A stretch of DNA of 64,000 nucleotides from Bacteroidota bacterium (GCA_021324685.1 JAJPIQ010000044.1:17066-81065); one strand, 5' to 3'; counted from the first letter of the stretch, positions 1-28,620 are shown. Notes: a model not told the origin generated them from the letters alone. Made by a program: numbers and translations.

Positions 1-3000
1 TTGCGAGTTCGGTCGTCCAGGCGGCCAATGGTGACTTCGTTATAGCCTGCGGTACGAATTCGAATGATGGTGATGTCTCTGGTAACCATGGCAATGGGGA
101 TCTATGGGTTGCTGATCTGAACAACAGCGGTGGACTGCAATGGCAGAGATGTTATGGTGGAACGAAAGGAGATGTCCCAACATCCATCATTCAAACGGCA
201 GATCATGGGTTTGCCATCGCGGGATTTACTCAGTCGAACGATTGGAATGTTTTCGGAAACCATGGAGGGAATGGTGTCGGAGACGCATGGGTCCTGAAAT
301 TAGGTACTCATGGAGAACTTGAATGGCAAAAATGTTTAGGTGGAACCCAAGACGACGAGGCTCTTGCCGTCGTTCAAAATTCCGATAGTGCCTATACGAT
401 CGGAGGTTGGACGAACTCCAATGATGGTGATGTTTCGAATAACCACGGAAAATATGACGCATGGATCGTGCAATTTTCACCACCGCCACCGCCCCCTACC
501 ATCGCCTATATCACCCCGGATGCCGGCGCTCCCGGAATGTGTGTTGCGGTCGAAATTATCGCTCCTGCGAACATGCAGGGGACGTTCGGTGACGATCAAA
601 TGTACGTCAGCGATTCGGCGGTAGCCGATACGCTCGTGGAACTTACGCGACCGAGCGATACTGCGCTCGTGCGCCTCGGACCCTCGATCGTAAGCTGGAA
701 TGGGCGGATGATCCAGCAAATGTTCCTGATCGAGCCGTTGGCAAAACAGATTGATACGGAAGTCTATTTTCGCGTCATTTGGAATGGGCAGTCGAGCGCC
801 ACCGACAGTTTCCGGATCCTCACTCCAAAGCATCTTGGGGTGATGTCGGGCGGCGCTATGCTTCCGGCTAATCTTCGGACCAGCCGCAACACGATGGTTG
901 TCGATTCAATGATTCTGAACAACGGACTTTATACTCTTCCGCAAAGCGATCCGGATAATAATACAAACGGAAACCAGGGCTTTCTACCGTTGCGTATTCT
1001 TTCGATGGGTCCGATTGTATTCAATCATGCAGGCCTTCACGCCGATGGTTCGCCAGGCCTTACGGGTACAGGCGGTGGTGCCGGAGGAGCTGGCGGCGGC
1101 GGCGGCGGAAGTGGCTATCCGGGTAAAGGTGGCGACGGCTACACCGGCGGTGGGGGCGATAACGATGGTACGAACGGGCCCGGTGGCGAGGGAACGGGAT
1201 CTTTTACTGGCAGCAATAATTGGGATGGCGGTTCGAGTTTGAACGGCGTAAGCGGTGGAGCGGGGGAACAGCACTCAGGTCTCAGCGGCGACGATGGCGG
1301 CGGCGGCGGAACCGGTCATCCCTTTGGATCGAGTGGTCAGCATGGGAACGCTTCCTCCAGTCCGGCCGGGGGATATGGCGGAGGCTCGGCCGGTGGAAGT
1401 ACATCAAATTATACGACGAATTATGGCGGCGGCGGCGGCGGATATTCGACAGCAGGAATGGCCGGAGCCGGAACAGGGTCCAATGCCGGGAATATCGTTG
1501 GTAATCCAATGCTCATACCCCTGGCGGGCGGGTCCGGCGGGGGAGCTGGGAACCAGACGTATGTCTCTCTTTTCGGCGGACAGGGCGGTTGTGGCGGAGG
1601 TGGCGGTGGGGCAATTGAACTGACGAGCTTCTCGCATGTAACGTTATCCATCTCGGGAGTCTCGGCGAACGGAGGCAGCGGTTCGAGTGGCATCTACACG
1701 GTAGAACCGGCAGCCGGCGGAGGTGGCGGCTCCGGTGGGGCGGTCGCGATCAGCGCGCGCGATTCGGTCGCCTTCGACCCAAATAGTTCTATCAGCGTGA
1801 CTCATGGTAATGACGGCGGGGGCAGCAACCGCGGCGGTTTGGGCGGCGAAGGACGCATTCGTATCAATGGCTTCGTTTCCAGTTCCCAAAGTTCTAATAG
1901 CCGCTTATACTTTGTCGATTCGATCGGCTATACCGGTCCTTCCATTCAACGCATCTCCTTCACGCCGGATTCGGCAAAAGTTCACGGCTATGCAGAGTAT
2001 TGGGATTCCGTCCCAGCAAACCCGCTCGATATTGAAGTGTATTACGCCTGGCCCAGCGCGCCGAGTTGGCAATCAGTTCATGCGACGCCACGGGTCGATC
2101 CCCGAAGCCATACGGCGCAATGGGATGCGGAATTTCCGATTTCTGCCAACCCGAGGGATACCGAACTCTATGCCGTTGCAGTGCAGAATGAAAGTGTTCA
2201 AACCGGAACATTTGCAGATGTTCCTTATGCGGTACTATCCCATACAAGCGGCATGATCGCAAAGGTCACCGGCCCGCCGAAAATGGTCGTGCGAACGACG
2301 ACGATAAATTTCGGGAATATTCTTATCGATTCGTGCTCGAGCGATACCACACTATTTATTTATTCGACCGGGAAATCGGACTTAATCATCGATTCGGCTC
2401 ATTTCACTCCGCCGATTCCCGATTTTAAAATTAAGACTACATTCCCGCAAACAGTCCATACCGGCGATTGGCTGAAAGTGACCCTTTCGTTTTGTCCGAC
2501 GGCGGTCAAATGCCCGATCGCGAGCACACTCGACCTGTTCTCCAACGGTGGCGATACGGCGATCGCCCTGACGGGTTGTGGTGTCCAGCCGGAGATGGAT
2601 ATTCATCCCGATACCCTCGATTTCGGTCGCGTGCATGTCGGCGATTGTAAAGATTCGTTCGTGGTCGTATCGAATCCCGGCAAGGACACGCTTAAAATTT
2701 CTGCCGAACTCATTCAAACGACATTTCCCTCGACGCTGGGATATTTCAGCGGACTCGACCCGCTCCCACTTTTTGTCCCTCCAGGCGATAGCGTTCATTT
2801 GAACCTGCGCTTCTGCGCAATGGATACCAATACGCGGACCGCACTCGACTCGATCTATGGCAATGCGCCGCAAAGCCCGTTCGGGCTCGTCCTGATGGGT
2901 GAAGGAAAAATTGGCGTGCTTTCGGTTCCATTCGTTCTCGACTTTGGCGCCGTGCATTTGGATTCCTGCAAAGATTCAGGATTTTATGCAGTCAATACCG

Positions 3001-4886
3001 GTAACGATTCACTGATCGTTACGAGCGCGAGCATTCCGATCGTGACGAATTTCACGATCCTTTCGCCGGCTACGCCGTTCGTGCTTATGCCGAATGACAG
3101 CATGTTTATTGCCGTGCGTTTTTGTTCGAGCGATACCGGCCGTTTCTCCGCGGTCTCGACCTTGGGAACCGATGTGCCGACCTCGGATTCGACGATCCTT
3201 CTTGCGCACACCGGGATTGGCATCCTTCAGATGCTTAATCTAATCGACTTTGGGAACGTTCCCACCGGCGGCTGCGCGGACACGAATATTGTGCTGAAAA
3301 ATATTGGCGCGGACACGCTCGTACTCGAACCAACTTCCGACGTGACGCCTCCATTCTCGTATAAAGGTCCGGCAAAAGTAACATTGGCTCCGGGTGAAGC
3401 GATTACCGTTCCCTTGTATTTTTGCCCCCAGGATACCAACGAAGCCATCGAGACGACGCTTTTCGATACTGTTGGTGCTGGACAGAACGTTTTGTTTACG
3501 CTTCGTGGCAAAGGTATCGAAGGGGCTCTTGCGACGTCTGGCGCTCTCGACGTTGGATGTATCCCCGTGGGAACCGATACGACCATACGAGTCACGATCC
3601 ACAATACCGGTACCGCCGCGCTCGATAGTCTCATGGCTTTGATCGTCCCGTCGAGTGTAGCGACGATCGTTCATGCGCCACCGACCTCCCTTGCGGCAGG
3701 CGCGGCGGATTCGATCGTGATCGTTATTCCGGCCTCCACGGTCGGAGCAATTTCCGGAACGCTTGCGATTGCCTGGCGCGGCAGCACTGGAATTACTCTA
3801 CCTATTACCGGGAATGTATCTCCGAAACCGGGGATAACGGCGCTCGACACCTCAATTGTGTTCGATACGACGAATATCGGCGATTCGAGCGTCACACAGT
3901 GTCTGCGCGTGACAAATTATTCGTGCATACCAATCGGCGTGTCATCGCTCAGCATTACTGGCGCGTTGCCGGGCGAGTTCGAAATCGTTTCCGATAACGT
4001 TGGCGGTTCGCTCGTCGATAGTGCGGTTGGAACGATTTGTATTCGTTACCGGCCGTTACGTTCGGGAGTGGCAACAGGCGAACTCTCGATCGTTAGTAAC
4101 ACCGATACGCTCCCGGTTGCATCCCTCTCCGGATTCGGGAAGGGGAACCCACTCGGGGTGGAGTTGAAACTCGACACTGTTTCGGGCCGGCCCGGTGAAA
4201 TTGTAACGCTTCCCGTCCGGACGGTGAATGACGTTACAAGTGCGGCAATCACCTCCCTTACATTCCGCGTGACATTTAATCCGATGCAACTCGATATGAA
4301 AGCACTGGCATCGCCCGTTGTACTTGGAATTATCCCGGCCTCTGCTTCGGGAACGTCGGCGACGTACTCGGTAAAGACGTATTCCATCGGCGACAAGGAA
4401 GTTACAGTGAAATTCGCTTCTCCCCTCGTGGGAGCGCCTGTGGTCGCTCAGCTTCCGTTCGAAATTCTGGAACCGACGGCGAGTACGGCTGCCATTCATT
4501 TGAAGAGCGCCACATTCGGGGCCTCTGCGGCCTCCCTCATGACGGCGTTCGATGGCGAGATCGCGATCGAGCAATGCGATACCAACGACCGGGTTTCACT
4601 TGGAATGAATCCCGTCGATGTTTCGCAAAACAATCCGAATCCATTTCATTCGGAGACGGATGTTGCTCTCACGGTCAATGTCGCGGGTCATGTTACAATC
4701 GATCTTTATAATGCACTCGGAACGAAGATCGCTACCCCTTTCGACGAGGATCTCCCCATAGGCTCAAAGAACGTTCCCGTCGATGCCCGTACGCTGCCGG
4801 GGGGTGTTTATCGATATATCGTCACCTGGACGGGGCCCCAACCGGAATTGCGAGTATCGAAGACGATGGTCGTGCTTGGCGAATAA
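1..4886 (+). CDS. Giant secreted cell-surface protein, 5'-partial (reading frame open from window start; first in-frame Met at 468). N-terminal SBBP-type beta-propeller repeats, Pro-rich linker, Gly-rich region, tandem Ig-like 'DFGxVxxGxC...NxGxxxL' domains, T9SS C-terminal sorting domain
   Basis: Frame 3 is open from nt 3. Translation 'SNDGDVSGNHGNGDLWVADL...DAWVLKLGTHGELEWQKCLGG' matches SBBP repeat logic (DAxVxKL...GG). Poly-Pro at ~475-500. Gly-rich GGGAGGAGGGGGGSGYPGKGG block ~1050-1870. At least 8 repeats of 'LDFG.V..G.C.D......N.G.D.L'. The last ~85 aa 'NPFHSETDVALTVN...VYRYIVTWTG' is a typical T9SS CTD. Confidence 0.8.
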   Translation, partial: ASSVVQAANGDFVIACGTNSNDGDVSGNHGNGDLWVADLNNSGGLQWQRCYGGTKGDVPTSIIQTADHGFAIAGFTQSNDWNVFGNHGGNGVGDAWVLKLGTHGELEWQKCLGGTQDDEALAVVQNSDSAYTIGGWTNSNDGDVSNNHGKYDAWIVQFSPPPPPPTIAYITPDAGAPGMCVAVEIIAPANMQGTFGDDQMYVSDSAVADTLVELTRPSDTALVRLGPSIVSWNGRMIQQMFLIEPLAKQIDTEVYFRVIWNGQSSATDSFRILTPKHLGVMSGGAMLPANLRTSRNTMVVDSMILNNGLYTLPQSDPDNNTNGNQGFLPLRILSMGPIVFNHAGLHADGSPGLTGTGGGAGGAGGGGGGSGYPGKGGDGYTGGGGDNDGTNGPGGEGTGSFTGSNNWDGGSSLNGVSGGAGEQHSGLSGDDGGGGGTGHPFGSSGQHGNASSSPAGGYGGGSAGGSTSNYTTNYGGGGGGYSTAGMAGAGTGSNAGNIVGNPMLIPLAGGSGGGAGNQTYVSLFGGQGGCGGGGGGAIELTSFSHVTLSISGVSANGGSGSSGIYTVEPAAGGGGGSGGAVAISARDSVAFDPNSSISVTHGNDGGGSNRGGLGGEGRIRINGFVSSSQSSNSRLYFVDSIGYTGPSIQRISFTPDSAKVHGYAEYWDSVPANPLDIEVYYAWPSAPSWQSVHATPRVDPRSHTAQWDAEFPISANPRDTELYAVAVQNESVQTGTFADVPYAVLSHTSGMIAKVTGPPKMVVRTTTINFGNILIDSCSSDTTLFIYSTGKSDLIIDSAHFTPPIPDFKIKTTFPQTVHTGDWLKVTLSFCPTAVKCPIASTLDLFSNGGDTAIALTGCGVQPEMDIHPDTLDFGRVHVGDCKDSFVVVSNPGKDTLKISAELIQTTFPSTLGYFSGLDPLPLFVPPGDSVHLNLRFCAMDTNTRTALDSIYGNAPQSPFGLVLMGEGKIGVLSVPFVLDFGAVHLDSCKDSGFYAVNTGNDSLIVTSASIPIVTNFTILSPATPFVLMPNDSMFIAVRFCSSDTGRFSAVSTLGTDVPTSDSTILLAHTGIGILQMLNLIDFGNVPTGGCADTNIVLKNIGADTLVLEPTSDVTPPFSYKGPAKVTLAPGEAITVPLYFCPQDTNEAIETTLFDTVGAGQNVLFTLRGKGIEGALATSGALDVGCIPVGTDTTIRVTIHNTGTAALDSLMALIVPSSVATIVHAPPTSLAAGAADSIVIVIPASTVGAISGTLAIAWRGSTGITLPITGNVSPKPGITALDTSIVFDTTNIGDSSVTQCLRVTNYSCIPIGVSSLSITGALPGEFEIVSDNVGGSLVDSAVGTICIRYRPLRSGVATGELSIVSNTDTLPVASLSGFGKGNPLGVELKLDTVSGRPGEIVTLPVRTVNDVTSAAITSLTFRVTFNPMQLDMKALASPVVLGIIPASASGTSATYSVKTYSIGDKEVTVKFASPLVGAPVVAQLPFEILEPTASTAAIHLKSATFGASAASLMTAFDGEIAIEQCDTNDRVSLGMNPVDVSQNNPNPFHSETDVALTVNVAGHVTIDLYNALGTKIATPFDEDLPIGSKNVPVDARTLPGGVYRYIVTWTGPQPELRVSKTMVVLGE

Positions 4887-4961
4887 CCCGCTTTCCCCGA
4901 GTTTCAGGAACGTCCCATTATCGAACGGCGGTTCTCTTTTTCCATTTTATTCACACCGATT

Positions 4962-6857
4962 ATGAAACGTCGCCTCTTCACCGTTGTCCTTGGTTTCCTT
5001 ATTGTTATCAGTTATTCGCTCTCGTCGACCCCTTCGGCGTTTGCGCGAAAGATCCCATTACGCGATTTTTTTAAGAACCCCGAACGCACCGCCTACGAGC
5101 TTTCGCCGGACGGGAAGTATTATGCGTTCCTCGCGCCGTATGAAAAGCGACTGAACATTTTTGTCGTGGCGCGCTCCGGCGGGGAACCGATTCGTCTTAC
5201 GAACGAGACCTCGCGTGACATCGCCGGATACTGGTGGAAAGGGAACGATCGCCTACTGTTTATGCGCGACAACAATGGCGATGAGAACTATCATCTCTAT
5301 TCGGTCTCGCGGGACGGAAAGGCGATCACCGACCTGACCCCCTTCGATAGCACGACCGTGCAGGTCGTCGATGGGATGATCGATCACGATAATGAAATCC
5401 TGATCGCAACGAACCAGCGCGACCATGAGATATTCGACGTCTATCATTTGGACCTCACGACGAATAAACTGCGCCTGGTGGCGCAAAACCCGGGTAACAT
5501 CAGTGGATGGGTTACCGATCACAATGGAAACCTGCGCGTCGCAACGACCACCGATGGTGTGAATACCTCGCTCCTGTATCGCGACAATGAAACGGATACC
5601 TTTCGGACAATTATTACGACCGATTTCAAGGAAAATCTTTCGCCGCTCTTTTTTACGTTCGACAATAAAAATCTGTATTGCTCGAGCAACCTGGGGCGCG
5701 ATAAGTCGGCGATCGTCATTATTGACCCCCGTACCGGAAAGGAACTTTCCGTCGTCTATGAAAACTCGGAGGTCGACGTTTCCGATCTCAATTATTCGCA
5801 CAAGCGCAAGGTCCTGACGTTTGCGGACTACGAAACGGACAAAGTTCATAATTATTATCTCGATCCTGAGACCGAAGCGATGCACAAAAAGCTCGAAGCG
5901 AAGCTTCCTGGCTATGAAGTGGTAGTGACGAGCTACGACCGCAACGAAGATTTATTTATTGTTCGAAACTATAACGATCGTTCGGTCGGCAGTATTTATC
6001 TCTACGATGCGAACGCCGATAAGCTCACCAAAGTGAGCGATATTCGCCCGTGGCTACATGAGGCAGAACTCGCAGAAATGAAGCCAATCACTTTTACATC
6101 ACGCGATGGCCTGGTGTTGCACGGGTATCTTACGCTTCCCAAAGGCTCCAATGGCAAGCACTTACCCATCATTGTCAATCCGCATGGAGGACCGTGGGCG
6201 CGGGATAGTTGGGGCTACGATCCGGAAGTTCAGCTCTTTGCGAATCGTGGTTATGGCGTCCTGCAAATCAATTTCCGCGGCTCGACCGGCTATGGCAAAA
6301 AATTCTGGGAAGCTTCCTTCCATCAGTGGGGCAAAACGATGCAAAATGATATCAGCGATGGCGTTCAGTGGCTGATACAGCAGGGCATTGCCGATCCCAA
6401 GCGGATCGCGATCTATGGTGGAAGCTACGGTGGCTACGCTACGCTTGCCGGGGTTGCGTTCACGCCGGACCTTTATTCCTGTGCGATCGACTACTGCGGT
6501 GTTGCAAATCTTTTCACGTTTATGAAAACGATCCCGCCGTATTGGAAACCCTATCTCGATATGTTCCATGAAATGGTAGGCGATCCAAAAAAAGACAGCG
6601 TTCTATTAGCGGAAGCATCCCCGGTCCTCCATGCCGACCAGATTAAAGTCCCGATGCTGGTACTGCAGGGCAAGAACGATCCACGCGTGAATATTAACGA
6701 GTCCAATCAAATGGTGGACGCGCTCAAAGCACGAGGAATCGATGTGACCTATATCGTGAAAGATAACGAAGGTCATGGGTTCCATGACGAGGAAAATCGT
6801 TTCGATGCCTACGAAGCGATGGAATCCTTCCTTGAGAAACATTTGCCGGTCGACTAA
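4962..6857 (+). CDS. S9 family serine peptidase (prolyl oligopeptidase / dipeptidyl aminopeptidase-like), signal peptide
   Basis: N-terminal signal peptide. Beta-propeller N-domain followed by alpha/beta hydrolase with HGGP, nucleophile elbow 'GGSYGGY', and catalytic His in 'DNEGHGF'. Confidence 0.9.
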   Translation: MKRRLFTVVLGFLIVISYSLSSTPSAFARKIPLRDFFKNPERTAYELSPDGKYYAFLAPYEKRLNIFVVARSGGEPIRLTNETSRDIAGYWWKGNDRLLFMRDNNGDENYHLYSVSRDGKAITDLTPFDSTTVQVVDGMIDHDNEILIATNQRDHEIFDVYHLDLTTNKLRLVAQNPGNISGWVTDHNGNLRVATTTDGVNTSLLYRDNETDTFRTIITTDFKENLSPLFFTFDNKNLYCSSNLGRDKSAIVIIDPRTGKELSVVYENSEVDVSDLNYSHKRKVLTFADYETDKVHNYYLDPETEAMHKKLEAKLPGYEVVVTSYDRNEDLFIVRNYNDRSVGSIYLYDANADKLTKVSDIRPWLHEAELAEMKPITFTSRDGLVLHGYLTLPKGSNGKHLPIIVNPHGGPWARDSWGYDPEVQLFANRGYGVLQINFRGSTGYGKKFWEASFHQWGKTMQNDISDGVQWLIQQGIADPKRIAIYGGSYGGYATLAGVAFTPDLYSCAIDYCGVANLFTFMKTIPPYWKPYLDMFHEMVGDPKKDSVLLAEASPVLHADQIKVPMLVLQGKNDPRVNINESNQMVDALKARGIDVTYIVKDNEGHGFHDEENRFDAYEAMESFLEKHLPVD

Positions 6858-22905: not shown

Positions 22906-24228
22906 ATGGATGCTTTTCGTGTAACCGGAGGAAAACCGCTCACCGGGACGGTACGTGTCAGCGGGACGAAGAATCTTATTTCGAAGGTCATGGTCGCTTC
23001 CATGCTTTCGGATCAGCCGAGCACCTTTACGAATGCGCCCGTCCGATTAGGCGAAGTCGATATTACCGGCGATATTGCTCGTTCACTCGGAAGTGAGATC
23101 GCGATCTCCAGCGAAGCTAACGGTACGTTAACGATCGCCACTCCCTCTTTTTCGACGACCGTGGTTCCCCAGCGATTTGCGGGTTTGAACCGCATTCCGA
23201 TTCTTATGATCGGTCCGATGTTGCACCGCACCGGTACGGCATCCGTTCCCATGCCCGGCGGCGACCGTATCGGGCAGCGACCGGTCAATTACCATATCGA
23301 CGCGCTTGAAAAAATGGGCGCGAAGATCGAGTTTGTCGATAATTATTTCCATTGCACGGCCGATACACTGACTGGAACTTTAATTTCTCTTCCGTTCCCC
23401 TCCGTTGGCGCAACCGAAAACATCATCATGGCTGCGGTCCTTGCCCGCGGTACGACGATCATCGAAAATGCGGCCGTGGAGCCTGAGATCGTGGAACTCA
23501 TGCGGTTTCTGCAAAAGATGGGCGCGATCATCAATCTGGAAACGAACCGTCGCATCATTGTGGATGGAGTCGATCGGCTCAAAGGTGCGCAGCAACGCAT
23601 TATGCCCGACCGGATTGAAGCGGCCTCTTTTGCATGTGCAGCTATTGCAACGAAAGGGGATATTTTTATCGAAAACGCCGTGCAGTCGACGATGATGACG
23701 TTTCTGAACAATATCCGGAGGGCGGGAGCAGACTTCGATGTCGTCGGTGGCGGAATTCGCTTTTTTTATAAGGACACGCTCAAGCCACTCGCGATCGAGA
23801 CCGACGTTCATCCGGGTTTTATGACCGATTGGCAACAGCCATGGGTCCTCCTCATGACGCAGGCCCATGGGATGTCGGTTGTGCATGAAACTGTCTATGA
23901 AAACAGATTTGGGTACACGCGAGAACTTCAAAAAATGGGTGCGGAAATTCAGCTTTATAAATCGTGTCTGGGTGGCAACCCTTGCCGTTTCAAATCGCTT
24001 GTACATCCGCACTCCGTCGTTATTTTAGGGCCGACAAAGCTCAAGGGAAGCCATATTGTCATTCCTGATCTAAGGGCGGGATTCGTTTATCTCATTGCCG
24101 CATCGCTGGCGGAGGGGGAATCGATTATCACCGGCATTCATCATGTCGAGCGTGGCTATGAGCATATTCAGCAAAAACTGCAGGATATTGGTGTGACGAT
24201 CGAGCGGGTTAAAGTACAAGATCAGTGA
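22906..24228 (+). CDS. murA: UDP-N-acetylglucosamine 1-carboxyvinyltransferase (MurA), Asp-type active site
   Basis: N-terminus 'FRVTGGKPLTGTVRVSGTKN' and global EPT-fold pattern. The active-site loop reads 'MPGGDRIGQRPV', so Asp replaces the Cys targeted by fosfomycin. Confidence 0.9.
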   Translation: MDAFRVTGGKPLTGTVRVSGTKNLISKVMVASMLSDQPSTFTNAPVRLGEVDITGDIARSLGSEIAISSEANGTLTIATPSFSTTVVPQRFAGLNRIPILMIGPMLHRTGTASVPMPGGDRIGQRPVNYHIDALEKMGAKIEFVDNYFHCTADTLTGTLISLPFPSVGATENIIMAAVLARGTTIIENAAVEPEIVELMRFLQKMGAIINLETNRRIIVDGVDRLKGAQQRIMPDRIEAASFACAAIATKGDIFIENAVQSTMMTFLNNIRRAGADFDVVGGGIRFFYKDTLKPLAIETDVHPGFMTDWQQPWVLLMTQAHGMSVVHETVYENRFGYTRELQKMGAEIQLYKSCLGGNPCRFKSLVHPHSVVILGPTKLKGSHIVIPDLRAGFVYLIAASLAEGESIITGIHHVERGYEHIQQKLQDIGVTIERVKVQDQ

Positions 24229-24457
24229 GGAGCCTCCTGTACTTCCACTTCCATAACAGATTTTCTAAAATCTTCAGATTTCAGATTTCGGGAGCGTTTT
24301 AACAAACTTCGAGGTTTCACGCCCCGCAGTTAACAGATGGCTTTGAAGCCATTTTGGAGACTCTGCCGACGATTCGTCCATACGGGGCCATTCATGGTAA
24401 TGGCCTGGCAGACATCCTCCGAACGCGATTTTTCGCGGTTTTTTTTACGTTAGAACC

Positions 24458-25036
24458 ATGGTAAAACTCAGATTAGCACGCCAGGGACGCAAGAAAGTCC
24501 CAATCTATAAAATTGTGGCCACCGACAGCCGTTCTCGGCGGGATGGGCGTTTTCTGGAATCGCTGGGCCAATATCGTCCTTCGAACGAGCCCGGCCAGAA
24601 GATCCAAATCAAAGAAGATCGTGCCCTTTATTGGCTGAACGTCGGCGCCCAACCGAGCGATACGGTCCGTTCGCTCCTTTCTCGCGAGGGTATATTGCTT
24701 AAATGGCACCTCGAGAAAAAGAAAGTCGATCCTGCTCGCGCCAGTGAGATTTTCAACACCTGGAAAACTGAGCGGGATGCCAAATACGCTTCGGCTGCCG
24801 ATGCGAAACAGCGTGCTCGGGAAGAAGCCCGCCGAAAAGCCGCTAAAAAAGCGCCTGAAGCCGCCGCTCCTGCTACCGAGACATCGACCGTAACCGAAAC
24901 AGCGGCTACCATCGAAGCAGAAGCGACTCCCGCTACTTCATCTGAAGCGCCCCAGGCTCTCGGAGAACCATCTGTGACCTCTGAAGCGGGTCTGAATCCC
25001 GAAGGCGAGCGCAACGCAGAAAGCGTCGAGGGATAA
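24458..25036 (+). CDS. rpsP: 30S ribosomal protein S16 with ~100-aa Ala/Glu/Thr-rich C-terminal extension
   Basis: 'MVKLRLARQGRKKVPIYKIVATDSRSRRDGRFLESLGQYRP' is the canonical S16 N-terminus. The low-complexity tail follows residue ~90. Confidence 0.9.
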   Translation: MVKLRLARQGRKKVPIYKIVATDSRSRRDGRFLESLGQYRPSNEPGQKIQIKEDRALYWLNVGAQPSDTVRSLLSREGILLKWHLEKKKVDPARASEIFNTWKTERDAKYASAADAKQRAREEARRKAAKKAPEAAAPATETSTVTETAATIEAEATPATSSEAPQALGEPSVTSEAGLNPEGERNAESVEG

Positions 25037-25052
25037 TACCCAATCGCTTGCC

Positions 25053-26453
25053 ATGGACGAAATCGTTGCATTTCTCCAGAGCGTCCCTCATTTAAGCGGC
25101 GTCCCTCGGGGCCAGATCGAATGGCTTGTGCGCGAGTCTGAACTCCGCGTTTTGGAACCGGGAATTTTGGCTCGACCGGGGGAGGCCAACGAGTTGATGG
25201 AGTATATGATCGTCCTCCTCGAAGGCTCACTTCAGGCCTACACGATTCAAAACGCGCAAAAGAAGATTCAAATGACGAGCGAGCCCGGTGCACTCACGGG
25301 ATTGCTGCCGTTTTCCCGTATGAAGTATACGCCCGTCTATGTGGAGACGATCGGGAATGTGAAAATGCTTGCGCTGCCTCGATCTAAATTTCATGCGCTG
25401 ATTGCCGCCAATTATGAGCTTACGGAAGTCATTGTGCATTCGATGGTGGATCGCGTCCGAGTCTTCACCTCCGCACATTTTCAGAATGAGAAGCTCATGT
25501 CCCTCGGTAAACTTTCCGCGGGGCTTGCACATGAGCTGAATAATCCGGCCGCTGCTATTGTCCGGAGTGCCGAAGATTTAAAGCACACTTTTGGAACGAT
25601 TGCTCAAAATCTGCGATCGATTGGCTCCATTGAATTAGAGGAGGACCAGATCGCGGCTTTGACGGGAATTTTTTTAGAAATCCAGTCCCGCCCCTCCAAT
25701 CGGCTCTCCCTGCTCGATCGGAAGCGGGAAGAAGAGCAGGTGATGGATTGGCTCGAAGCCCATGGCATTAACGGCGACTGTGCCGAAACATTCGTAGGCT
25801 TTCGCTATTCTACTACGGACCTGGACCGGATAAAAGAAATTTTTTCGGAACCGGCATTCCCGCCGTTCATCGACTGGCTTTCGAGAACGCTTTCGGCCGA
25901 ACAAGCCGTCGAAGAAATCGGGACCGCCTCGCGCCGTATTTCGGAGCTCGTTCAGTCCGTCAAAAGCTATACCCGGATGGACCAGGTGCAGGATATGCAG
26001 GAACTCTGCATCAACGATGGCATTCACAATACGGTGACGATGCTCCAGCATAAGTTCCGGAAAAACAATGTGGAACTTCAGGAGGAACTTGCCGCCGGTC
26101 TTCCGATGATCCTCGGGTTCCCAGGCGAACTGAATCAGGTCTGGACCAATATTATCGATAATGCCCTGGATGCGATGAAAGAAAACGGTGGCACGCTCAC
26201 CGTGCGGACCTATCCCCGGGACGATGCGGTCGTCTTTAGTGCAGCCGATACGGGCCCCGGCATTGCGCCGGAGTATCTGGAGCGGATTTTCGACCCGTTC
26301 TTTACCACAAAGGATGTGGGGGAGGGGACCGGGGTCGGTCTCGATGTCGTCCAAAAAGTCGTTACGTTACATCGTGGGAAGATCGATGTTTCGTCCAAAC
26401 CGGGGTCTACGGAATTCCGAATTTCCTTCCCACGCGTTGCGGGGATTGCATGA
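25053..26453 (+). CDS. Sensor histidine kinase with N-terminal cyclic-nucleotide-binding (CAP-effector-like) domain
   Basis: N-terminal ~130 aa resembles the cNMP-binding beta-roll. HisKA 'LSAGLAHELNNPAAAIVRSAE' with phospho-His. HATPase_c with 'DTGPGI' and 'GTGVGL'. No TM segments. Confidence 0.85.
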   Translation: MDEIVAFLQSVPHLSGVPRGQIEWLVRESELRVLEPGILARPGEANELMEYMIVLLEGSLQAYTIQNAQKKIQMTSEPGALTGLLPFSRMKYTPVYVETIGNVKMLALPRSKFHALIAANYELTEVIVHSMVDRVRVFTSAHFQNEKLMSLGKLSAGLAHELNNPAAAIVRSAEDLKHTFGTIAQNLRSIGSIELEEDQIAALTGIFLEIQSRPSNRLSLLDRKREEEQVMDWLEAHGINGDCAETFVGFRYSTTDLDRIKEIFSEPAFPPFIDWLSRTLSAEQAVEEIGTASRRISELVQSVKSYTRMDQVQDMQELCINDGIHNTVTMLQHKFRKNNVELQEELAAGLPMILGFPGELNQVWTNIIDNALDAMKENGGTLTVRTYPRDDAVVFSAADTGPGIAPEYLERIFDPFFTTKDVGEGTGVGLDVVQKVVTLHRGKIDVSSKPGSTEFRISFPRVAGIA

Positions 26454-28108
26454 AGCTCCCGATCCTATTTTTACTCGATGACGACTCGCAGGTGCTACGG
26501 GCGATTTCGCGCGACATCCGTCAGCGCTATAAGCAGGACTACCGTGTGCTTTCGACGGAGGACCCCGCGGAAGCACTCGAAAGCCTGAAAGAGCTCCGTC
26601 GCACGGGCGAGGAAGTGGCGCTCTTCCTTTCGGACCAACGCATGCCGCGTATTACCGGAGTCGAATTCCTCGAGCGCTCGAAGGAATTTTTCCCCGAGGC
26701 GAAACGAGCGTTACTTACGGCGTATTCGGATATCGATACGGCGATCAAAGCGATCAACGAAGTCGAACTCGATTATTATCTGCTGAAACCCTGGGACCCG
26801 CCGGAAGAGAAATTGTTTCCTGTTATCGATGAGTTGCTTGAGGAGTGGCAGGCGAGTTACAAGCCGGAACTTCCCGGCATCCGCCTTATTGGGTACCAGT
26901 TCTCTCCAAAATCGCACGCCATTAAAGAATTTTTGGCCGGGCATCTTATTCCGTACCAGTGGCTCGATGTCGAGACCAACCCAAAGGCTAAAGAGATTCT
27001 GGAGTTGAATGGGCTTACCGTCGCTTCGCTTCCCGCCGTATTCCTTGAGGATGGATCGGTTGCGGTCGATCTCGAGATGCGGTCCCTTGCTGAGAAGCTT
27101 GGGCTGCGTCCGACGCCGAGTTCCAACATGTACGATGTTGTTATCATTGGCGCTGGGCCGGCCGGCCTTGCGGCAGCCGTTTATGCTGGTTCGGAAGGTC
27201 TCAAGACCCTGCTCATCGAAAAACATTCGCCGGGGGGACAGGCGGGGACGAGTTCCCGCATTGAAAATTACCTCGGGTTTCCCAAAGGCCTGAGCGGTTC
27301 GGAGCTTACCCGGCGTGCCGTTGCACAGGCCACGCGATTTGGAATCGAATTCCTCACACCGCAGGAAGTCCTGCGTCTTTCATCGGCGGACCAATATAAA
27401 ACGGTTCATCTTGCCGATGGCGCCGAAATTCATACCAGAAGTATCATTATTACCACCGGGGTATCCTATCGGACGCTGGAAACAAAAGGTATTGCCGGAC
27501 TGACCGGAGCAGGCGTTTATTACGGTGCTGCTAACGTTGAAGCAGCGCAATTCCGAGGAAAACAGGTCTTTGTAATCGGCGGTGGGAATTCTGCAGGCCA
27601 GGCCGCGCTGCACCTCTCCAAATTTGCGGCGAACGTATTTATTGTGATTCGAAAAAAGGACCTGACATCGACCATGTCATCGTACCTTATCGACCAGATC
27701 GCTCGAACGGAAAACGTGGCTCTGTTGGCCGAGTCCGAAGTGATCGAAGCTCAGGGCTCCGAGCATTTAGAAGCTCTCGTTCTTCAAACGGCCGGCGGTG
27801 AACGCTATACAAAGAGCGCAGATGCGCTGTTTATCATGATCGGTGCGCGCCCTTATACCGACTGGATCCAGTCGGGTATTATGAAAGACGATCGCGGATT
27901 TATTGTCACCGGCCGGGATCTGCGTACCTCTGAAAAATTCAATGGGGGCTGGAAATTGAAACGCGACCCCTATTTGCTGGAGACCTGCTGTCCGGGAATT
28001 TTTGCAGCGGGCGATGTCCGGGCCGGCGCTATGAACCGCGTTGCCAGTGCCGTGGGCGAGGGTGCCATGGCCGTCAGTTTCGTTCATCAATATCTTGCCG
28101 AAGTGTGA
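26450..28108 (+). CDS. Response regulator (REC) fused to a Cys-less glutaredoxin-like domain and a thioredoxin-reductase-like FAD/NAD(P)-binding domain lacking the CxxC redox centre
   Basis: ATGA overlap with the kinase. REC with Asp in 'LFLSDQRMP'. Grx-fold 'GYQFSPKSH...SLPAVFLEDG' (SPKS in place of CPYC). TrxR-like GxGxxG 'VVIIGAGPAGLAAAVYA', second Rossmann 'VFVIGGGNSAGQAA', 'GIFAAGDV'. The CATC position reads 'GAANVEAA'. Confidence 0.8.
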   Translation: MKLPILFLLDDDSQVLRAISRDIRQRYKQDYRVLSTEDPAEALESLKELRRTGEEVALFLSDQRMPRITGVEFLERSKEFFPEAKRALLTAYSDIDTAIKAINEVELDYYLLKPWDPPEEKLFPVIDELLEEWQASYKPELPGIRLIGYQFSPKSHAIKEFLAGHLIPYQWLDVETNPKAKEILELNGLTVASLPAVFLEDGSVAVDLEMRSLAEKLGLRPTPSSNMYDVVIIGAGPAGLAAAVYAGSEGLKTLLIEKHSPGGQAGTSSRIENYLGFPKGLSGSELTRRAVAQATRFGIEFLTPQEVLRLSSADQYKTVHLADGAEIHTRSIIITTGVSYRTLETKGIAGLTGAGVYYGAANVEAAQFRGKQVFVIGGGNSAGQAALHLSKFAANVFIVIRKKDLTSTMSSYLIDQIARTENVALLAESEVIEAQGSEHLEALVLQTAGGERYTKSADALFIMIGARPYTDWIQSGIMKDDRGFIVTGRDLRTSEKFNGGWKLKRDPYLLETCCPGIFAAGDVRAGAMNRVASAVGEGAMAVSFVHQYLAEV

Positions 28109-28620
28109 GTGAGGACCTCGTTCTCCTTGCCCGTATCCGAAAGCCCCATGGGATCAAAGGGGAACTTTCGCTGGAATCCTTCTCTTTCGACGACCGGCGT
28201 TTCCTTAAGCTTAAAAAAGTTCTCGTGCGACTTCCGGATGGCGCGGTTTCCGAGCATGCCATTCGGCATGTGCGCATTTCCGGTCAGGGTGTTTTGTTGA
28301 CGTTCGAAGGAATTGAAGATCGAACGTCCGCCGAGGCGTTCCGCGGTGCCGAATTGTTTATTGCAGAGTCCGAGCGGCCAAAACTTCCCAAGGGACGTTT
28401 TTATTACGATCAGATTATTGGCATGACCGTCATCGACGATGACACCGGTGTCGCGATCGGACGGGTAAAGAATGTGCTCGATATGCCGGCGGGGGATGTT
28501 TTTGTGCTCGACCTGGAAGGACGCGAGCATCTCATTTCGAACGCCGGAGAGGAAGTTCGAGCGATCGATGTCAGGAAAAAGGAGCTTCGTGTATTGCTTT
28601 TAAAGCCGTACGGCGAATAG
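28105..28620 (+). CDS. rimM: Ribosome maturation factor RimM
   Basis: GTG start overlapping the upstream stop. 'LARIRKPHGIKGEL' N-terminal PRC-barrel/RimM signature and size ~170 aa. Conserved rpsP-rimM neighbourhood, here interrupted. Confidence 0.85.
   Translation: MSEDLVLLARIRKPHGIKGELSLESFSFDDRRFLKLKKVLVRLPDGAVSEHAIRHVRISGQGVLLTFEGIEDRTSAEAFRGAELFIAESERPKLPKGRFYYDQIIGMTVIDDDTGVAIGRVKNVLDMPAGDVFVLDLEGREHLISNAGEEVRAIDVRKKELRVLLLKPYGE

Follow-up and report, generated by a model that had tools for sequence, protein, structure and literature searches.

Response regulators with a thioredoxin reductase (TrxR)-like output have been catalogued: a published census lists a 'TrxB' type among response-regulator output classes (PMC9953108), and the receiver (REC)-TrxB architecture is a class of the Galperin census (PMC5847659, PMC9953108). 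TrxR-fold proteins without a CxxC motif can be active enzymes, as is the case for the TrxR-like ferredoxin/flavodoxin reductases, and the TrxR-like ferredoxin-NADP+ reductases carry a C-terminal subdomain with a residue that stacks against FAD on its re side (PMC10294844). Here we analyzed a regulator of the REC-TrxB type and the histidine kinase encoded beside it, at 25053-28108 on the + strand of a 64,000-nt stretch from a Bacteroidota bacterium (GCA_021324685.1, JAJPIQ010000044.1:17066-81065), between rpsP and rimM. We call the full length of this stretch the window, and the coordinates of open reading frames (ORFs) are counted within it. The architecture is not new, being both a catalogued response-regulator class and a standard NCBI product name, and the locus is one more member of it. 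The CxxC motifs expected in such an output are missing from every relative that we sampled. We favor, with moderate confidence, a reading in which the phosphorelay is intact and the output is a functional NAD(P)H/FAD flavoprotein, gated by phosphorylation, that uses non-disulfide chemistry or acts through a partner.

The regulator (552 aa, 26450-28108, + strand) was delineated by ORF calling, domain searches, PDB alignment, structure modeling and Foldseek. A receiver domain (aa 1-125, 26450-26824; PF00072 3.8e-14 and the model) is followed by one glutaredoxin (Grx)/mycoredoxin-fold domain (aa 140-220, 26867-27109; model topology and a profile match to 2lqo) and by a TrxR-like FAD/NAD(P)H flavoprotein domain (aa 225-552, 27122-28105; Pyr_redox_2 1.4e-38, TrxR 7aaw 3.6e-44), all on the + strand. 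This order had been proposed from the DNA alone in an earlier reading of the stretch, hereafter the original prediction, and Pfam, the family profile and an AlphaFold model all bear it out. In the receiver, D10/D11, the acceptor D62 (codon 26633-26635, + strand, placed by receiver alignment), T90 and K113 are intact, and they are invariant in the sets of 57 to 120 homologues compared. A Pfam scan of the regulator found no DNA- or RNA-binding output domain.

By sequence, the best solved relative is the TrxR 7aaw (E 3.6e-44, ~32% identity), followed by AhpF, and the score against the TIGR01292 TRX_reduct model (229.7 bits) lies under the equivalog cutoff of 343.45. The middle domain is more divergent: the Glutaredoxin Pfam model gives a sub-threshold 17 bits on the lone sequence and matches 21 of 53 family members, while a profile of the 53 middle domains matches the Mycobacterium tuberculosis mycoredoxin-1 (2lqo, E 2.2e-11). 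In that alignment the W-C-G-Y-C of mycoredoxin-1 lies opposite W-S-x-x-S in the family, which reads FSPKS in the window, and the cis-Pro loop is kept (P195). With 57 homologues as input, AlphaFold gave a model (pLDDT 80, pTM 0.65) that shows a receiver, a Grx-like domain and a TrxR-like body; DSSP assigns the middle domain a β-α-β-α-β-β-α topology over residues 144-216, and SPKS caps the N-terminus of helix 1. A Foldseek search with the model ranked AhpF first among full-length matches (4xvg, E 3.8e-29, 570 columns), with TrxRs at ~1e-28.

The flavoprotein domain retains its cofactor motifs, as had been predicted: GAGPAG at 234-239 for FAD, GGGNSA at 377-382 for NAD(P)H, with R401-K402 beyond it, and GDV at 521 (GD 521-522). 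Both redox motifs are lost. At the Grx site, the predicted change of CPYC into SPKS is confirmed by the profile alignment and the model (S152-P-K-S155, 26903-26914, + strand). At the TrxR site, the loss of CATC holds, yet its residue-for-residue reading as AANV does not: aligned to the C-A-V-C of TrxRs, the window has G359-A-A-N-V363 (27524-27538, + strand), with a one-residue insertion relative to the TrxR CxxC. 'AANV' occurs once more, by coincidence, at aa 393. The only cysteines of the regulator are the adjacent C513-C514 (27986-27991, + strand, from the sequence) within TCCPG at 512. The original prediction had singled out this pair as unusual, a view that conservation does not sustain: C513 is present in 93 of 120 close homologues and C514 in 26 of 120, and the position is mostly Ser in the wider family.

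We then measured how far the loss extends, in 345 non-identical relatives, for which we pooled the close homologues with 150 cluster representatives at ~40-56% identity and with the 80 species of a genome scan. No CxxC was found at either former site in any of the 345. At the Grx site the count of CxxC is 0 of 327, and 23 of 327 have a single Cys. The residues found instead are strongly conserved, as WSxxSH at the Grx site and YYGAAxTEA at the TrxR site. Y358 is kept in 340, E364 in 329, A365 in 322 and the cis-Pro P195 in 328 of the 345; E364 occupies the place of the TrxR Asp, and the former active-site stretch is among the best conserved of the protein. Within the closest 120 homologues (63-100% identity), G-Y-Q-[YF]-S-P-K-S-H and Y-Y-G-A-A-x-x-E-A hardly vary at all. 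The cofactor sites follow the same pattern in 127 distant representatives (32-50% identity), where G234/G236/G239, G262-G263-Q264, G377, N380-S381-A382, R401 and G521-D522 are invariant or at least 90% conserved. The complete absence of CxxC together with the conserved replacements argues that the loss is old, ancestral to the whole family and one of its defining traits, and that the replacement residues, like the cofactor sites, are under strong purifying selection. Canonical dithiol-disulfide exchange should thus be impossible for the regulator, as the original prediction had held, and the conservation of the replacements argues against simple decay.

The family is large. A protein search with the regulator returned at least 8000 matches, of which the best 120 are all full-length, share 63-83% identity and come from Kapabacteria, Balneolales and several Bacteroidota orders; the nearest named relatives among the matches listed are Candidatus Kapaibacterium and Kapabacteria. 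A scan of one genome per species placed the family in at least 597 species of seven or more phyla, including Bacteroidota, Cyanobacteria, Acidobacteriota, Chloroflexota, Gemmatimonadota, Actinomycetota and Planctomycetota. Homologous REC-TrxR fusions therefore exist, and with the Cys loss conserved, two points that the original prediction had put forward for checking. Across Kapabacteria, Balneolales and Bacteroidota the regulator keeps 63-66% identity, compared with 40-46% for the kinase core and ~30% for the kinase sensor. Such identity across phyla is typical of a constrained enzyme. Those relatives that bear a name are entered as 'FAD-dependent oxidoreductase', as 'thioredoxin reductase (NADPH)' or as 'fused response regulator/thioredoxin-disulfide reductase'. 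No sampled member has the disulfide, so that the public name is misleading, and databases systematically mis-name the family as thioredoxin-disulfide reductase.

The Grx/TrxR-like part alone, searched against 1.84 billion representatives, gave a view of how this module may be controlled elsewhere. We classed the N-termini of 150 representatives with local hidden Markov models of REC and cNMP-binding (cyclic nucleotide-binding) domains. The N-terminus is REC-like in 62 and of cNMP fold in 51, short or absent in 33, both REC and cNMP in one, and other or undetected in three. None of the architectures carries a further effector domain. The Y-Y-G-A...E-A and W-S-x-x-S-H signatures are common to all relatives of the module, and one protein in which a cNMP-fold sensor is fused directly to it (P0126) has the G-L-L-P-x-S-R cassette of the kinases described below. 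The same sensor fold would thus act on the same effector in two ways, by direct fusion or by way of His-Asp phosphotransfer, in the classic pairing of one-component and two-component systems. Because REC and cNMP-fold domains attach to the flavoprotein module and no other effector is ever present, the module is best read as the regulated output.

The soluble histidine kinase (466 aa, 25053-26453, + strand) was defined by its ORF and its Pfam/NCBIfam domains. The HATPase_c match is strong (1e-24) and the HisKA match weak (residues 151-211). Over 63 partner kinases, the H-box H-E-L-N-N-P is invariant and the N, G1, F and G2 boxes are conserved, which places the predicted autophosphorylation site at H160 in HELNNP (codon 25530-25532, + strand). 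In 70 of 80 species a homologue of this kinase is encoded next to the regulator in the same orientation; its gene lies upstream of the regulator gene in Bacteroidota, but downstream of it in Acidobacteriota, Cyanobacteria and Chloroflexota. Kinase and regulator thus form a conserved cognate module.

The sensor domain of the kinase (aa 1-145, 25053-25487, + strand) matches cNMP_binding (PF00027) with 29.6 bits, weakly but above the cutoff of 27.5. Its fold became clear with a family profile: the lone sequence gave spurious proteasome-ATPase matches and a weak CRP match against the PDB, whereas the profile matched PKG, PKA-R and CRP with E values from 1e-17 to 1e-33. The assignment to the cNMP-binding (CRP/PKA-R) fold, made in the original prediction, is sound on this profile evidence. 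Its further claim, that the kinase senses a cyclic nucleotide, is another matter. The phosphate-binding cassette is degenerate (G83-LLPFSRMKYTPV-Y96, 25299-25340, + strand) when aligned to PKG-type cassettes of the form GE..A....PR[ST]A: the Glu that contacts the ribose 2'-OH is replaced by L84, and the Arg that contacts the cyclic phosphate by T93. Because the canonical Glu and Arg are absent, a cyclic nucleotide as the ligand is unproven, and the kinase is better described as a putative cNMP-fold sensor whose ligand need not be a cyclic nucleotide. CRP-fold domains without the cassette residues often bind other ligands, such as haem in CooA, 2-oxoglutarate in NtcA and glutathione in PrfA. 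Most partner kinases share a consensus G-x-L-P-[FY]-S-R cassette motif. A canonical cassette (GEMALISRSPRSAS, of the GE...PRSAS type) is kept in a few of them, for example HK22. The family may thus be mixed, with some true cNMP sensors and others that were re-purposed.

These features suggest the following scheme. The kinase would sense its signal through the cNMP-fold domain and autophosphorylate on H160, and the phosphate would pass to D62 of the regulator. The AhpF-like module would have lost both CxxC motifs in the family ancestor, gained WSxxSH and YYGAAxTEA, and remained a working NAD(P)H-dependent flavoprotein. Phosphorylation of the receiver would then switch either a domain rotation or the passage of electrons to a partner protein or to an acceptor other than a disulfide; in the sister proteins, the same switch would be thrown by the fused cNMP-fold sensor. 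Domain rotations are needed for catalysis in TrxR and AhpF, and we infer the same need for the regulator.

Several observations weigh against this scheme. No acceptor substrate can be named, and the regulator fits no known CxxC-less catalytic solution, having neither an FNR-type subdomain nor a YpdA-type Cys. The confidence of the AlphaFold model is moderate overall, and it is low precisely in the flavin loops and where the CxxC used to be. Many distant REC-like relatives (P0121-P0270, e.g., P0125, P0140 and P0145) seem to lack the acceptor Asp and further receiver residues; in the alignment, on which this pseudo-receiver result depends, D/D/K is seen at the corresponding positions in only a minority of the 62 REC-type representatives. 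A lost acceptor would also be compatible with a role as a non-catalytic scaffold. In the searchable literature we found only census mentions, and no biochemical, genetic or functional study of any family member.

The alternative that best survives is the one adopted in the original prediction, namely that the module is a pseudo-enzyme or redox sensor. It would bind FAD and NAD(P)(H) without catalysis and report the redox state of NAD(P)H/NAD(P)+ or of the flavin through protein contacts, with the receiver as a second input. We consider this a serious rival, though a less likely one. The catalytic cysteines are gone in all 345 relatives, no FNR-type C-terminal subdomain or YpdA-type Cys makes an alternative catalytic apparatus recognizable, the receivers of some relatives are degenerate, and a small zf-UBP protein encoded next to the pair in 19 of 86 loci could be a binding partner. 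On the other side, the Y-Y-G-A-A-x-T-E-A stretch is highly conserved and not obviously needed by a pure nucleotide sensor, and the REC and cNMP-fold domains are typical inputs, with no other output domain ever attached. To call the regulator a pseudo-enzyme is to go beyond the missing cysteines, since TrxR-fold enzymes without CxxC are active (PMC10294844) and the residues that replace the cysteines are under selection. The ancestral loss and the conserved replacements shift the picture from a 'decayed enzyme' to a 'different, regulated flavoprotein'.

Where a partner or substrate of such a flavoprotein might be sought is suggested by the neighbors of the pair in other genomes. We clustered all ORFs of 87 loci, and only two neighbors besides the kinase recur across phyla. 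One is a small Cys-rich zf-UBP (PF02148) protein of 83-110 aa, whose gene directly adjoins the pair in the same orientation in those 19 of 86 loci, from many phyla (e.g., L003 4278-4529, L010 6663-6935, L016 6097-6369, L077 4552-4824 and L084 8038-8355); this gene overlaps the kinase start in Balneola, and the protein may be a partner or substrate. The other consists of the ergothioneine biosynthesis genes egtB and egtD, with NCBIfam scores at equivalog level (TIGR03440 519 bits against a cutoff of 360; TIGR03438 281-304 bits against 291), found on the same strand beside the kinase-regulator pair in 5-6 of 80 species from Bacteroidota and Acidobacteriota (L010 1175-3371, L013 715-2966, L016 6463-8630, L019 6874-8046, L077 1801-4515 and L081 1704-4191). 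At these loci egtB/egtD lie around the pair along with the zf-UBP gene, in three different gene orders; three orders in two phyla indicate that the egtB/egtD link is not simple inherited synteny. None of egtB, egtD and the zf-UBP gene occurs in the 64-kb window or beside the closest relatives. Together, the zf-UBP and egt neighbors weakly suggest low-molecular-weight (LMW) thiol metabolism or a metalloprotein partner, and they provide concrete, testable leads.

Two proposals follow these leads. In the broader one, the whole REC/cNMP-TrxR family would be a Cys-free, signal-gated flavoenzyme acting on an LMW thiol or thione (ergothioneine) or on the zf-UBP protein, with the Grx fold as a substrate-holding arm. 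We rate this as unlikely. If correct, it would represent a catalytic solution new to the TrxR/AhpF fold, as well as the first two-component system with thiol-redox chemistry as its direct output. In the narrower one, slightly less probable still, the regulator would be an LMW-thiol reductase in which an external thiol or thione, ergothioneine or a relative, is held by the Grx fold and replaces the lost disulfides, so that the pair tunes thiol recycling. The egtB/egtD neighborhood recurs in two phyla with differing gene orders, and the nearest solved relative of the middle domain, mycoredoxin-1, binds an LMW thiol and shares the cis-Pro. The egt link, however, concerns only ~7% of the sampled loci and is missing, with the zf-UBP gene, from the window and its closest relatives, and we found neither a precedent in a Cys-free TrxR fold nor literature support.

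We next turned to the position of the pair in the window. ORF calling places four + strand genes head to tail: rpsP (ribosomal protein S16, 192 aa, 24458-25036; PF00886 8.4e-25, TIGR00002 104.7 bits against a cutoff of 45.3), the kinase, the regulator, and rimM (171 aa, GTG start, 28105-28620; PF01782 8.7e-21, TIGR02273 116 bits against 66.2). rpsP comes first and rimM last in the block, and a convergent DUF3098 gene comes after rimM. The gap between rpsP and the kinase is 16 nt; the kinase stop overlaps the regulator start by four nucleotides (ATGA, as predicted, with the pair between rpsP and rimM), and the regulator stop overlaps the GTG start of rimM by another four (GTGA). No terminator-like hairpin was found at any junction inside the block. 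The tight gap, the two 4-nt overlaps and the lack of a junction terminator make it very likely that the four genes are co-transcribed and translationally coupled. Base composition is uniform throughout the block, and a σ70 promoter scan gave fewer promoter-like sites than expected from shuffled sequence.

The sole good terminator-like hairpin of the region, a GC stem followed by T8 (24424-24447), lies ~10 nt 5' of the start codon of rpsP. It may either terminate the MurA-like gene (EPSP_synthase family, 22906-24228) that precedes rpsP in the window, or act as an element in the leader of the rpsP operon. Rfam and tRNA scans returned no matches, including for this hairpin. The S16 protein is extended at its C-terminus by ~100 residues with a high content of Ala, Glu, Thr and Lys (24728-25036); it resembles the long-S16 model PRK14521, yet scores 145 bits against its cutoff of 209. 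No paralogue of the REC, Grx or TrxR-like domains occurs elsewhere in the window.

The original prediction had taken this placement to suggest that the pair couples a signal to the expression of ribosome-biogenesis genes. This is doubtful on two counts. The regulator has no nucleic-acid-binding output and so, as far as its domains indicate, cannot directly regulate the ribosomal operon. Moreover, neither rpsP nor rimM lies near the pair in any of 80 sampled species from seven or more phyla, and the contexts of nearer relatives differ. In L001/L002 (78% identity to the window regulator), the order rpsP-kinase-regulator-rimM is as in the window; just 5' of rpsP, L001 has a CarboxypepD_reg and AhpC-TSA/Redoxin fusion (2188-3831) where the window has the MurA-like gene. 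In L087 (83%), the regulator-rimM overlap is kept, while a toxin-antitoxin system and an Mrr nuclease split kinase from regulator and no rpsP lies within 5 kb; the insertion in this closest relative (3524-4979) comprises an Unstab_antitox/ParE pair and an Mrr-type restriction nuclease. At 72% identity (P0024), the pair follows ccmE/ccmF without rimM, and in Balneola and Phaeodactylibacter (64-65%) the contexts are unrelated. The absence of rpsP and rimM from the 80 species and these differing contexts suggest that the ribosomal-operon position is a recent, lineage-restricted insertion in some Kapabacteria.

A related idea is that the regulator acts with or on RimM or S16 in 30S maturation, for example by relaying a redox or nucleotide state to ribosome assembly. 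In its support, three distinct genomes (the window, L001/L002 and L087) retain the 4-nt overlap between regulator and rimM, and two of them have rpsP directly upstream. We nonetheless regard it as very unlikely, given the empty count over the 80 species, the unrelated contexts in Balneola, Phaeodactylibacter and the 72% relative, the split pair without nearby rpsP in L087 and the lack of a nucleic-acid-binding domain. The operon position more plausibly ties the expression of the pair to that of the ribosomal proteins than the reverse; it is a lineage-specific curiosity that predicts growth-rate-linked expression of a signaling pair. Finally, a canonical Trx/AhpF-type disulfide reductase whose CxxC is shifted or misaligned, as the product names and the top sequence and fold matches to TrxR and AhpF would imply, is refuted by the sequence itself, as the two adjacent, non-conserved cysteines leave no CxxC anywhere in the protein and the TIGR01292 and AhpF scores are below cutoff. 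The alignments thus showed neither a displaced motif nor a failure of the folds to match, and the matches to TrxR, AhpF and mycoredoxin-1 stand.

Compared with known systems, the regulator differs from each of its solved relatives. The mycoredoxin-1, NrdH and small glutaredoxin proteins share the fold of the middle domain and the cis-Pro loop, but they have WCxxC where the family has WSxxS (FSPKS in the window), so that no thiol chemistry would be possible there. Low-Mr TrxB is alike in fold, FAD/NADPH motifs, GD motif and sequence (~32% identity to 7aaw), and differs by its CxxC, opposite GAA(N)V with the one-residue insertion in the window, where the TIGR01292 cutoff is not reached; the window family also has a ~13-residue insertion of its own ahead of the GD motif (W501...R505-x-P507). 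AhpF likewise joins an N-terminal Trx-superfamily domain to a TrxR-like FAD/NAD(P)H module, but with two tandem Trx folds and two CxxC motifs, of which the one in the Trx folds relays electrons to AhpC, against one Grx fold, no CxxC and an extra receiver in the window; the regulator scores 163 bits against the 502.9 cutoff of the AhpF model TIGR03140.

The CxxC-less enzymes are no closer. The TrxR-like ferredoxin reductases have the TrxR fold and no CxxC (PDB 3ab1 6.7e-20, 3lzw 9e-17), yet their similarity to the regulator is far weaker than that of TrxR, and they are without the REC and Grx-fold domains of the window protein. The regulator ends at the TrxR C-terminus (its residue 551 corresponds to residue 310 of 321 in 7aaw), and membership in this group was ruled out by the missing C-terminal stacking subdomain and the weaker similarity. 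Nor does it belong with the bacillithiol-disulfide reductases YpdA/Bdr, which conserve a Cys around the N-terminal FAD motif, as its GAGPAG is without Cys and it scores 81.8 against the TIGR04018 cutoff of 339.9.

Nearer are the one-component relatives made of cNMP, Grx-fold and TrxR-like domains, which have the same Cys-free module (35-50% identity, WSxxSH and YYGAxxxEA) and the sensor fold of the window kinase, fused directly and without the phosphorelay. The closest match remains the REC-TrxB class itself. The regulator has its receiver residues, full-length TrxR-like similarity (63-83% over 100% of the length) and the adjacent kinase; architecture, length and kinase type are those of the class, and identity reaches 50-83% with hundreds of members from Bacteroidota, Cyanobacteria, Acidobacteriota, Chloroflexota and others. 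Behind the locus stands a family with thousands of proteins, spread over at least 597 species and unusually conserved across phyla, from which the window pair differs only by its location between rpsP and rimM.

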